Positions 12,107 to 16,477 are shown, numbered from the stretch's first letter. The stretch is DNA of 64,000 nt from Escherichia coli (GCF_013122565.1 NZ_CP053258.1), one strand, 5' to 3'. The notes: a model not told the origin generated them from the letters alone. Numbers and translations are program-made.

Positions 12107-13195
12107 TTACTGCTTCAGAGTAGCAAATGCCTGAATGATGGTATCGATTTGCTCACGACTGTGGGCAGCGTTTACGCTACAGCGCAGCAGCGTGATGCCT
12201 GCAGGCGCGGCAGGTGGCAGGATAAGATTCACATAAACGCCCAGCGAAATAAGCTCGCGCCAGATGCGTAAACCTTCCTCTTTCGAACCGATTATTACCG
12301 GCACTACCGGACTAATATGTGAACTTAACTCATAACCCAGTTTTTGCAGACCGTCATACAGATGGTTGGCGTTATCCATCAGTTTTTGCCGCAGCTCTGG
12401 TTGTGTGGCAATGGTTCTTAACGACGAGCGCACGGTCGCAATGCAGGACGGAGAAGGAGAGGCGGTAAAAATATACGGGCGGCTGCCGTAGCGCAGCACT
12501 TCCATCGCTTCCGAACCGACAGCAAAACCGCCAATCGAGGCCAGACTTTTACTGAAGGTACCAACGATAATATCCACATCATCTTCAACGCCAACGGCTT
12601 CAGCCAGTCCGCGCCCCGTTGCGCCTAACACGCCAAACGAATGCGCTTCATCGACAATCAAATAACCACCGAGACGACGTTTGATATCAACAATTTCCGC
12701 TAACGGCGCAACGTCACCGAGCATGCTGTAGATACCCTCAACGATGATAATCGCCTCTTTCGCCCGTTCACCGAGGCGAACCATGCGCCGTTCCAGATCT
12801 TTAGCATCGTTATGGCGGAAACGAATAATTTCCGCGCCACCGAGAGAACAGGCGTCATAAATACTGGCGTGGCTGTCGGCATCCAGTAACACCACGGCGT
12901 TATGGTCGGCAAGTGCGCTGATGACGCCTAAATTAGCGGTATAACCGGTTGAAAAAACGATAGCGGTAGGGCGATTGAAAAACTCGGCAATCTCTTTCTC
13001 TAACGCCAGGTGCGGCGCATAACTGCCGTTTGCCATACGAGAACCGGTGGTGCCGGTGCCTTGGGCCGCTAACGCTGCCTGACCTTCGGTGGCGGAATAC
13101 ACTTCATCAATACAGGTGCCAAACGGTGTTAACCCGTTGTCACTAAATTGCAGTCGCTCGCCAGCAAGGCGCGCATATTTATCGTATAGCCCCAT
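12107..13195 (-). CDS. PLP-dependent alpha-oxoamine synthase family enzyme (serine palmitoyltransferase / AONS / KBL-like)
   Basis: 362 aa; class-II aminotransferase-like sequence with PLP-lysine context GTFSKSLASIGG, DEAHSFG, STGYTANLG; start overlaps ACP stop (TAATG). Confidence 0.8.
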   Translation of the reverse strand: MGLYDKYARLAGERLQFSDNGLTPFGTCIDEVYSATEGQAALAAQGTGTTGSRMANGSYAPHLALEKEIAEFFNRPTAIVFSTGYTANLGVISALADHNAVVLLDADSHASIYDACSLGGAEIIRFRHNDAKDLERRMVRLGERAKEAIIIVEGIYSMLGDVAPLAEIVDIKRRLGGYLIVDEAHSFGVLGATGRGLAEAVGVEDDVDIIVGTFSKSLASIGGFAVGSEAMEVLRYGSRPYIFTASPSPSCIATVRSSLRTIATQPELRQKLMDNANHLYDGLQKLGYELSSHISPVVPVIIGSKEEGLRIWRELISLGVYVNLILPPAAPAGITLLRCSVNAAHSREQIDTIIQAFATLKQ

Positions 13196-13443
13196 TATTT
13201 ATTCTCCAGCCATGGAAGTAGAGTTTCCATTAATTGCGCAGGGGTTTTGACATCCAGCAGAATATTAATAGGAATGGAAATATCGAATCTGTCTTCCAGC
13301 ATCATTAAGAGATCCATCACTTTGATCGACTCCAGGCCAAGATCGTTGACGAGATCGCTGTCGGGCTTAATTTCCACACCGTTTTCGACCAAATCCTGTA
13401 AACAGGAAAGGATGTAATCCATTACTATTTCACGATTTACCAT
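13195..13443 (-). CDS. Acyl carrier protein
   Basis: 82 aa acidic small protein with phosphopantetheine-site-like motif DLGLESIKVMDLLMMLEDRF. Confidence 0.75.
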   Translation of the reverse strand: MVNREIVMDYILSCLQDLVENGVEIKPDSDLVNDLGLESIKVMDLLMMLEDRFDISIPINILLDVKTPAQLMETLLPWLENK

Positions 13444-13474
13444 AGAAACGTTAACACACCTTTAAACAAGACAA

Positions 13475-14389: not shown

Positions 14390-16107
14390 GCCAGGGATTC
14401 CTGCACATGAAGACTGGCAGCATAAGCCTTCTGATAACGTTTTTTCGCTTCCGCACGGGCAGGCTTGCCGGAGGACGTTCGGGGAATACTGTGGGGCGGC
14501 AACAGATCGATAGCCGCGGTCACGCCAAATTCGCTTTGGATCCGTGCCGCCAGCGCGTGGATAAGCTGCCCGCGACGTTCTTCGTCGCTGATCCGACACT
14601 GGATCTGCAAAATGATTTTTTCCTGGGCGGTAACAAAAGCAATCGCATCGCCAGAATGAATTTCCGGTTCCTGTTCCGCAATATATTCAATATCCTGCGG
14701 CCAGATATTACGGCCACGAATAATAATCAGATCTTTAATGCGTCCGGTGACATACAGATAACCGTCCAGCAGATAACCGAGGTCGCCGGTGTCTAACCAG
14801 CCCGTCGCGGCAATCTCGTCTTGCGAAGCCTGGTCGCCAAAGTAACCGCTCATCAGGCTAGGGCCGGAGATGCAAATATGGCCTACCACACGTTCCGCGA
14901 CAGGTATACCTGCTTCATTGCGGATTTCAATGCCATGTTCCGGCAACGCTTTGCCGCAGTTGACGAAAGTCGATACGGCGCGTGTCTCTGCACCCGGCGC
15001 GACGGCTTTACCCTGATATTCGAGGATGTCGCGATCCACTTCGTTAACCACAACCCCGGAGGCTTCATCAGAGAAGCTGACAGCCAGCGCATTTTCTGCC
15101 AGTCCGTAGCACGGCATGAAAGTTTTATTGTCAAAGTTAACCTGACGGAAACATTCAGCGAATTGATGGAGTTGTTCTGCGGAGATGGGTTCTGCACCAA
15201 TACCAGCGACGCGCCAGGAGGAAAGATCCAGTTCAGCGAGATCTTTTTCATTCACGCGGCGCTGGCACAATTCATAGCCAAACGGCGGCGCAACGGAAAC
15301 GGTGCCGCGATTTTTACTGATCAATTTAAGCCATTGCAGAGGACGCATGGCAAAATCCTGAGTGCGCAAATAATCTACTGAAAGCTGCGTGGCGACAGGG
15401 GTCAGGAGAAAGCCGACCAGTCCCATATCATGGTAGAAAGGCAGCCAGGAGACGCAGCGGTCGCCAGGGCGTAATTTAATGCCATCGTGGCTTATAGCAC
15501 GTAGATTAGCCATCACTTCGCGATGGGTGATAATGACGCCACGGGGAAAACGGGTGCTGCCGGAGGTGTACTGGAGGTAGGCGATATCGTTCGGAACTGG
15601 ACGCTGGAGCGCAACATCGGCTTCCGGTAATGCCTTAAACCAGGCGTGGCTTAAAACATGTAATTCGGGATTGTTATGCGTCGCGGCATTGACCAGTGGC
15701 AACCACTCATCACCAGTGATAATGGCTGCGGGCTGGCAACTTGCCAGTAAACCCTGCAGTTTGGCGCTCCAGGAATCCCGCTGACCGACGCCCATTGGAA
15801 TCGCCAACGGGACGGCGACTAAGCCGGCATACTGGCAGGCAAAAAAAGCCTCTACGAACCCGCTACTGGTTTCGGCAATCAGCGCCACGCGATCGCCTTT
15901 TTTCAGGTTCAGCGATAACAACCGCTTCGCACCAGCTTCGGCACGCGCTTTTAACGTCTGATATTCCAGTTGATCTTCAAGTTGGCAACGTCTGTCATAA
16001 AAATTCATTCCAGCGCTACTCAGAGCGGCGTAGTCCAAAGCATCAACCAGCGTTGGAAAATCGGCATAGCGCATAGGTAGGGAATGCGTAAAGATTTTAT
16101 TAGACAT
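14386..16107 (-). CDS. AMP-binding enzyme: fatty acyl-AMP ligase / acyl-ACP synthetase-like
   Basis: About 573 aa; adenylation motif YTSGSTRFPRGV, GYxxTE-like and C-terminal SGKxxR lysine region; start ambiguous (TTG at track start, ATG about 16107, or ATG about 16074). Confidence 0.75.
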   Translation of the reverse strand: MSNKIFTHSLPMRYADFPTLVDALDYAALSSAGMNFYDRRCQLEDQLEYQTLKARAEAGAKRLLSLNLKKGDRVALIAETSSGFVEAFFACQYAGLVAVPLAIPMGVGQRDSWSAKLQGLLASCQPAAIITGDEWLPLVNAATHNNPELHVLSHAWFKALPEADVALQRPVPNDIAYLQYTSGSTRFPRGVIITHREVMANLRAISHDGIKLRPGDRCVSWLPFYHDMGLVGFLLTPVATQLSVDYLRTQDFAMRPLQWLKLISKNRGTVSVAPPFGYELCQRRVNEKDLAELDLSSWRVAGIGAEPISAEQLHQFAECFRQVNFDNKTFMPCYGLAENALAVSFSDEASGVVVNEVDRDILEYQGKAVAPGAETRAVSTFVNCGKALPEHGIEIRNEAGIPVAERVVGHICISGPSLMSGYFGDQASQDEIAATGWLDTGDLGYLLDGYLYVTGRIKDLIIIRGRNIWPQDIEYIAEQEPEIHSGDAIAFVTAQEKIILQIQCRISDEERRGQLIHALAARIQSEFGVTAAIDLLPPHSIPRTSSGKPARAEAKKRYQKAYAASLHVQESLA

Positions 16108-16477
16108 ATACACCACGAAAAAATTGGATATCAAAAATAAAATGACAATAATGCGGTGGATTATATAGGCATAAAAGATAAATGAGATAGTATTTTCATC
16201 AGTGTGAAAATGAACATTGATTTAAATAATAGGTTTGGTTTTGTTGTTTTTATTGTGAATGATATTTAATTTATGAATATATTAAGAAGAAGCCTTGTCC
16301 GGTCGCCTTAAATCGACAAAAGGCATTGTGGCGCTTCTGTGTAGTCTCTGACCTTATCTTAATCATTAATAAATACTATTTATTCTTTATTTGTATTCAT
16401 TGGGTTGATTATTAAGATGCCGTTCGTTGCTGTTGTAACCTGTTTGTCACCGTTAATTATTTGTTATCCACAGAGAT
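16108..16477. promoter_or_regulatory. AT-rich divergent intergenic region, presumed promoters for the lipid operon and yghO
   Basis: About 340 bp of strongly AT-rich sequence with many TATAAT-like hexamers between divergent genes; no specific site assigned. Confidence 0.4.

Follow-up and report, generated by a model that had tools for sequence, protein, structure and literature searches.

The subject of this analysis is a stretch of 64,000 nucleotides from Escherichia coli (GCF_013122565.1 NZ_CP053258.1; hereafter the window), which carries four consecutive genes on its minus strand at 12107-16134. Based on the listing of open reading frames (ORFs) and on the sequence, these encode a ligase, a short-chain dehydrogenase/reductase (SDR), an acyl carrier protein (ACP) and an alpha-oxoamine synthase. 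We place at about 0.87 the probability that they are the E. coli aasR-cerR-acpR-spt operon, the core of the proteobacterial ceramide/sphingolipid pathway, and that the serine palmitoyltransferase (SPT) encoded by spt is here most likely dead through a deletion. The identity of the locus follows from the 97-100% identity of its products to the characterised proteins of strain BL21(DE3), together with synteny and the published biochemistry. The four-gene set, the gene order, the ACP-dependent loading and the E. coli enzymes have already been published (PMC9386255); the sole new element here is a unique deletion of 28 codons in spt.

In BL21(DE3), the genes are ECD_02851 (aasR), ECD_02852 (epi, also cerR), ECD_02853 (acpR), ECD_02854 (spt) and ECD_02850 (yghO/aca) (Padilla-Gomez et al. 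2022, Front Microbiol 13:961041; PMC9386255). ECD_02850-02854 are found at the same chromosomal locus as the genes of the window, in the same order and with the same overlaps; the identities of the single proteins are given in Table 1. AcpR of E. coli (AcpR_Ec) is labelled by beta-[3H]alanine and thus carries 4'-phosphopantetheine, and the co-expression of AasR_Ec, AcpR_Ec and Spt_Ec leads to 3-oxo-sphinganine (PMC9386255). AasR_Ec works with AcpR_Ec and not with the Caulobacter ACP (AcpR_Cc), and Spt_Ec prefers palmitoyl-AcpR over palmitoyl-CoA or palmitoyl-AcpP (PMC9386255). Loading by AasR and AcpR and condensation by Spt have thereby been demonstrated experimentally for the BL21(DE3) proteins. 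The earlier note on this DNA had proposed a ligase that loads a dedicated ACP, from which the synthase and L-serine form a 3-keto sphingoid base, and this agrees with the published biochemistry of the BL21(DE3) orthologues (PMC9386255).

Alignments of the DNA and the protein to strain GF66.2 and BL21 place the junction of an 84-bp in-frame deletion in spt at 13078..13088 (minus strand), at the short direct repeat CGAAGG(T/C)C. This removes residues 40-67 of the Spt of 390 amino acids (aa), that is the 28 aa IGNKKVILAGTNNYLGLTFNHDAISEG(L/Q), and with them the conserved active-site motif NNYLGL. Breakpoints within a short direct repeat are the pattern of replication slippage. The best 25 matches to 12000-13500 were each aligned in two pieces around 84 extra bases, and a 42-nt probe for the junction was found at a coverage of at least 80% in none of the 5,426 complete E. 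coli genomes. In a collection of 15 billion proteins, the exact 362-aa protein (QJU27012.1/WP_171460368.1) belongs to one 4.82-Mb genome only, and the other members read from the 5,829-member cluster of Spt are nearly all 390 aa long. The 362-aa allele is also present in a Logan contig of run SRR11451224 that matches the window without a single difference over 7,089 bp; since two assemblies agree base for base, the deletion is unlikely to be the artefact of one assembler. Outside the deletion, spt has two residue differences from BL21 and a ratio of nonsynonymous to synonymous substitution rates (dN/dS) of 0.09.

Concerning the structure, the 362-aa Spt aligns to the SPT of Sphingomonas paucimobilis (SpSPT, 2JG2) in two blocks: residues 3-38 to chain positions 24-60, and 37-357 to 87-409. 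The lost segment corresponds approximately to SpSPT residues 61-88, Tyr73 included, and about 26 residues of the solved structure are left unmatched. From the +1 offset of the alignment to 8GUH we infer that E. coli Asn51 and Tyr53 are the equivalents of Asn52 and Tyr54 of the SPT of Sphingobacterium multivorum (SmSPT). The latter two take part in the hydrogen-bond network around the pyridoxal 5'-phosphate (PLP)-L-Ser adduct, and positions neighbouring them are equivalent to the sites of the human SPTLC2 disease mutations Asn177, Ala182 and Arg183 (PMC10196870). A single-sequence AlphaFold2 model of full-length Spt had a mean predicted local distance difference test score (pLDDT) of 37 and was unusable for placing the deleted segment. 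The window allele is without the N-terminal N-x-Y-L-G segment which, in SPTs, lines the PLP-serine site. Because the NNYLGL active-site segment is lost, the committed step is most likely dead and the strain a natural spt-null. To judge from the sequence, the deletion is probably a recent, strain-specific, inactivating lesion, and the gene is probably an spt orthologue by descent and not an active SPT. The isolate could be used as a natural loss-of-function control for spt, and the name ‘serine palmitoyltransferase’ has been propagated onto an allele which is probably inactive.

The assignment of the synthase to a family was based on curated hidden Markov models (HMMs) and on solved structures. 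With the NCBIfam SPT equivalog NF047599 (cut-off 500), the window allele scores 535 bits and the Spt of BL21, at full length, 599 bits. The scores of the sister families are 314-333 bits for bioF (cut-off 426), 275-297 for KBL (460) and 210-222 for CqsA (428); ALAS is also below its cut-off. Searching the PDB with full-length BL21 Spt, the top 10 matches were all SPTs (E 6e-111 to 1e-77; the best is S. paucimobilis 2JG2, 5.6e-111), and the matches to cysteate acyltransferase, KBL, BioF and CqsA had E values of 1e-59 to 1e-35. The comparison of the synthase with SPT, CqsA, BioF and KBL, which the earlier note had proposed, thus favours SPT, the only model scoring above its cut-off and the family of the best PDB matches. 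Based on the alignments, the catalytic residues His109, Asp182, His185, Lys216 and Arg338 are kept (SpSPT His159, Asp231, His234, Lys265 and Arg390, respectively). At the position of SpSPT Arg378 (NMARPP) the 362-aa protein has Leu326 (NLILPP), while Arg390 is conserved. Arg378 is described as contacting the serine carboxylate; as the full-length E. coli enzyme is active despite the leucine, Arg378 is not universally required.

AasR matches the NCBIfam fatty acyl-AMP ligase model NF006624 with 868 bits (cut-off 600). Pfam domains assigned to identical products are AMP-binding for the ligase, PP-binding for the ACP and Aminotran_1_2 for the synthase. AasR shows the features of the fatty acyl-AMP ligase subfamily and is encoded together with acpR and spt. 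The selectivity for AcpR over CoA was demonstrated with the Caulobacter AasR, and the acylation of AcpR_Ec by AasR_Ec was deduced from the product formed in vivo (PMC9386255). AcpR has the features of a specialised sphingolipid ACP: a PP-binding domain, Ser39, a gene directly upstream of spt, and complete identity to the labelled ECD_02853. A carrier protein without a modifiable serine would, according to the earlier note, have spoken against its proposal; Ser39 is present in DLGLESI, and the identical ECD_02853 carries the 4'-phosphopantetheine. CerR contains the Pfam domains Epimerase, 3Beta_HSD and NAD_binding_10, with TGATGFIGKY at residues 8-17 and a YANSK (YxxxK) motif.

In the proposed pathway, AasR would adenylate a free long-chain fatty acid and transfer it to the 4'-phosphopantetheine arm of AcpR at Ser39. 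The PLP-dependent Spt, with its Schiff-base lysine in GTFSKS, would then condense acyl-AcpR with L-serine under decarboxylation to give 3-oxo-sphinganine. YghO, encoded divergently alongside, would N-acylate the base, and CerR would reduce the 3-keto group. The order of these two steps is disputed: one group places the reduction before N-acylation, whereas the Klein laboratory places it after, on oxo-ceramide, and in the periplasm in Caulobacter (PMC11087976). The substrate of the SDR may therefore be oxo-ceramide rather than 3-ketosphinganine. The convergent operon which runs from yghQ to the lptF and lptG paralogues is a candidate for the flippase and for the export to the outer membrane. 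What CerR and YghO do in E. coli, as well as the export, is suggested by analogy with Caulobacter. As encoded in the window strain, the pathway is probably blocked at Spt.

The deletion allows of two other explanations. The whole operon could still work in this strain, with a 362-aa Spt that folds and joins serine to acyl-AcpR, its specificity perhaps changed: the reading frame is kept across the deletion, the PLP-binding and catalytic residues downstream of it are intact, the protein scores above the SPT cut-off, and the two differences from BL21 and the low dN/dS indicate no further decay of spt. However, the lost NNYLGL motif is conserved across alpha-oxoamine synthases, with it go the two residues that correspond to SmSPT Asn52 and Tyr54 in the lining of the PLP-serine site, and the gap amounts to about 26 residues of a solved structure. 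In addition, an allele which is unique among the 5,426 genomes and the members read of the 5,829-member cluster fits a recent lesion and not a maintained variant; we consider a functional operon unlikely. The strain could, on the other hand, have a normal spt and the 84-bp deletion be an error of sequencing or assembly, since the allele is known from one isolate only and a single read set may underlie both the complete genome and the Logan contig. Two different assemblies are, however, in agreement over the 7,089 bp, and the loss of exactly 28 codons between short direct repeats bears the signature of slippage and not that of a homopolymer error or of a collapsed repeat, which makes an artefact very improbable.

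Two further explanations concern the product and not the deletion. A synthase of the BioF, KBL or CqsA type would make a biotin precursor, aminoacetone or a quorum-sensing ketone, respectively, and the common alpha-oxoamine synthase fold and the weaker HMM matches to all three families are in line with this. Unlike the match to the SPT model, however, those matches stay under the curated cut-offs, the PDB matches to SPTs are better by about 50 orders of magnitude in E value, and the BL21 enzyme put L-[14C]serine into 3-oxo-sphinganine (PMC9386255). Given the curated cut-offs and the published assays, the BioF, KBL and CqsA identities were rejected, and there is hardly any probability left for them. 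The product of the E. coli cluster could also be something other than a ceramide, such as a free long-chain base or another N-acyl amino-lipid signal, and not an outer-membrane sphingolipid. We know of no report of a native E. coli sphingolipid; no counterparts of the Caulobacter head-group genes CC_1152, 1153 and 1158-1161 are found nearby; and both YghO and a 274-aa protein of the convergent operon are without a family assignment. On the other side, compounds with the migration of sphinganine and ceramide were seen in BL21 after over-expression had supplied 3-oxo-sphinganine (PMC9386255). YghO is also 44% identical to the Caulobacter ceramide synthase, and the adjacent flippase and LptF/LptG paralogues point to the export of a membrane lipid. 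A product of another kind is accordingly improbable in our view.

Several observations weigh against the identification of the locus as a ceramide operon with a null allele of spt. The 535 bits of the shortened Spt are still above the SPT cut-off. Inspection of the CerR translation revealed no recognisable signal peptide, the Rossmann motif starting at residue 8, and the Caulobacter CerR has been reported as periplasmic. The published E. coli assays were done with over-expressed genes, with empty-vector strains as controls (PMC9386255); taken together with the lack of a reported native lipid, this suggests that the chromosomal operon may be silent in the laboratory. A more novel proposal, to which we give a probability somewhat below one half, is that under some as yet undiscovered conditions E. 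coli produces a lipid of the ceramide type and exports it to the outer membrane, and that the AT-rich spacer of 403 bp between aasR and yghO keeps the cluster silent in the laboratory. In that case, the isolate could serve directly as a natural spt-null with which to test the purpose of that lipid.

The layout of the four genes is compact (Table 1). The stop codon TGA of aasR (14388-14386) overlaps the ATG of cerR (14389-14387) in an ATGA (coding strand GGCATGAATC), and the stop codon TAA of acpR (13197-13195) overlaps the ATG of spt (13195-13193) in a TAATG (coding strand AATAATGGGG). The end of cerR at 13475 and the start of acpR at 13443 leave a gap of 31 bp. The motifs seen in the translations are YTSGSTRFPRGV in the ligase, TGATGFIGKY in the SDR, DLGLESI with Ser39 in the ACP, and GTFSKS with Lys216 in the synthase. 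The four-gene layout, both overlaps, the gap and the four motifs are all present as the earlier note had described them. Its extent to 16134 is correct for the longest ORF; that position is a TTG only, and the annotated ligase starts are the ATG codons at 16074 or 16107. Thus, beside the start given in Table 1, aasR has alternative starts at ATG 16107 (573 aa) and TTG 16134, and only ATG 16107 is preceded by a Shine-Dalgarno-like element, GGTG. The overlaps suggest translational coupling, with which they are compatible, but they do not establish stoichiometric expression. The products are named fatty acyl-AMP ligase, NAD-dependent epimerase/oxidoreductase, acyl carrier protein and spt (serine palmitoyltransferase) by the Prokaryotic Genome Annotation Pipeline (PGAP).

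Table 1. Features of the window at and around the aasR-cerR-acpR-spt operon, and identity of their products to those of BL21(DE3)
Feature	Position	Strand	Description	Identity to BL21(DE3)
aasR	14386..16074	-	fatty acyl-AMP ligase / specialised acyl-AcpR synthetase, 562 aa (PGAP start)	553/562 (98.4%), ECD_02851/WP_001325883
cerR (epi)	13475..14389	-	extended-SDR NAD(P) reductase, 304 aa	294/304 (96.7%), ECD_02852
acpR	13195..13443	-	dedicated acyl carrier protein, 82 aa	82/82 (100%), ECD_02853
spt	12107..13195	-	serine palmitoyltransferase, deletion allele, 362 aa (usually 390 aa)	360/362 aligned residues (99.4%), gap apart, ECD_02854
yghO	16478..17620	+	homologue of bacterial ceramide synthase (aca/bCerS), 380 aa; divergent, fifth ceramide gene	380/380 (100%), ECD_02850
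aasR-yghO spacer	16075..16477		403 bp, 30% GC (window mean 51.5%); presumed promoters/regulatory sites	
Hairpin	12070..12104	-	16 pairs, 10 of them G-C; fills the 34-bp gap between the convergent spt and lptG paralogue	
yghQ	7150-8499	+	MOP/Polysacc_synt flippase; Pfam PF01943, E 2.7e-8	within 98-99.6%
274-aa protein gene	8499-9323	+	shares base 8499 with yghQ; member of the putative sphingolipid export operon	within 98-99.6%
YtfJ-family (YtfJ-like) protein gene	9332-9895	+	TIGR01626, 213 bits; signal peptide	within 98-99.6%
LptF paralogue gene	9926-10996	+	NCBIfam LptF, 318 bits; Pfam LptF_LptG	within 98-99.6%
LptG paralogue gene	10993-12072	+	NCBIfam LptG, 308 bits; Pfam LptF_LptG; convergent with spt	within 98-99.6%
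Wadjet JetA/JetB/JetC/JetD	27479-34164	+	498, 254, 1095 and 394 aa; PADLOC 901, 386, 1627 and 642 bits	

The functional unit is larger than the four genes: it also comprises the divergent yghO and the convergent operon of the YghQ flippase and the LptF/LptG paralogues, and mirrors the Caulobacter cluster. The gene context is pitB-yghT-yghS-yghR-yghQ-(hypothetical)-ytfJ-like-lptF-lptG on one side and yghO-glcC-glcDEF on the other. The genes of the LptF and LptG paralogues, which are candidate sphingolipid exporters by analogy with Caulobacter, are joined by an ATGA overlap. The Pfam family of YghQ, PF01943, underlies InterPro IPR002797. Neither Pfam nor NCBIfam scans gave a match for YghO or a family for the 274-aa protein; the latter is conserved across E. 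coli (269/274 residues identical to BL21, dN/dS 0.09). The small P-loop proteins YghT, YghS and YghR are encoded directly upstream of yghQ (window 4735-7104), and their dTMP-kinase-like matches are weak (22-31 bits, far below the cut-offs). Their possible role as ceramide kinases like the Caulobacter CpgB was rejected, as CpgB is of the LCB5/diacylglycerol (DAG)-kinase type and they are weak dTMP-kinase-like P-loop proteins.

Concerning the non-coding sequences, the GC-rich hairpin downstream of spt is probably a bidirectional terminator, an assignment which is tentative because its tail is not T-rich. Apart from this hairpin, the promoter- and terminator-like hits inside the operon were at the level of shuffled sequence. 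A promoter scan across 16075-16477, the spacer between aasR and yghO, gave eight promoter-like hits against 5.6 +/- 2.1 by chance, none of them convincing. An Rfam scan of 7000-18700 gave nothing near any gathering score, and a repeat search of 12000-16600 gave only short pairs at chance level. The low GC content of the spacer would suit silencing of the H-NS type, which might explain the missing laboratory sphingolipid.

The distribution of the locus was determined by a megablast of 7000-17700 against the 5,426 complete E. coli genomes. The region is matched in 4,754 of them; in 4,061 (about 75%), the match extends over at least 80% of the region, with an identity of 95-99%. In K-12-type genomes only 22% of the query is matched and an IS5 is found between yghQ and yghO: K-12 has lost the locus by an IS5-associated deletion, so that the strain of most lipid work is without these genes. 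Between the window and BL21, dN/dS is 0-0.16 for every gene of the cluster, and values of at most 0.16 indicate that the cluster is maintained by selection in the species. Together with the carriage in about 75% of the genomes, these values make the timing and the role of sphingolipid synthesis in E. coli a sharper question. In E. coli GF66.2 (L001), the lptG paralogue is annotated as frameshifted (6994-8074), yghO has an internal stop (12569-13711) and glcC is frameshifted (13718-14424); either the cluster may have been damaged independently in isolates other than that of the window, or the assembly of GF66.2 may be prone to errors.

Further along the window, a complete type I Wadjet anti-plasmid system is located between glcA and tRNA-Phe (34521-34596, minus strand). 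In strain A30, glcA is directly followed by sslE-pppA-gspS2 of the type II secretion system (T2SS)-beta cluster instead of Wadjet; given this different content, the position of Wadjet is a variable island.

Compared with known systems, the four-gene order is the same in E. coli and in Caulobacter crescentus (CC_1165-CC_1162, aasR-cerR-acpR-spt). The BL21 proteins are 34-53% identical to CC_1154 and CC_1162-1165 (E between 3e-8, for the short ACP, and 1e-155); the identity is 34% for the pair ECD_02852 and CC_1164 (E 7e-38), and 44% for the pair ECD_02850 and CC_1154 (E 1e-107) (PMC9386255 Table S2). The Caulobacter sphingolipid region contains the flippase candidate CC_1166 (IPR002797) and LptF2/LptG2 (CC_1156/CC_1155), which are proposed carriers to the outer membrane (PMC11324152). 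A Polysacc_synt flippase and LptF/LptG paralogues are thus found in both clusters. There are also differences: in E. coli, yghO (cerS) is directly adjacent and divergent, a YtfJ-family protein and the 274-aa protein are added, and neither the ceramide-phosphoglycerate head-group genes nor lptC2 are found nearby. Concerning the synthase, the best solved relative of E. coli Spt is S. paucimobilis 2JG2; GTFSKS is common to both, but the E. coli enzyme prefers acyl-AcpR to acyl-CoA. BioF, KBL, CqsA, ALAS and cysteate acyltransferase share with Spt the fold-type I PLP fold and the decarboxylative Claisen chemistry. The closest known systems also include that of BL21(DE3), the Spt of which was assayed at its full length of 390 aa, whereas the Spt of the window is without residues 40-67.

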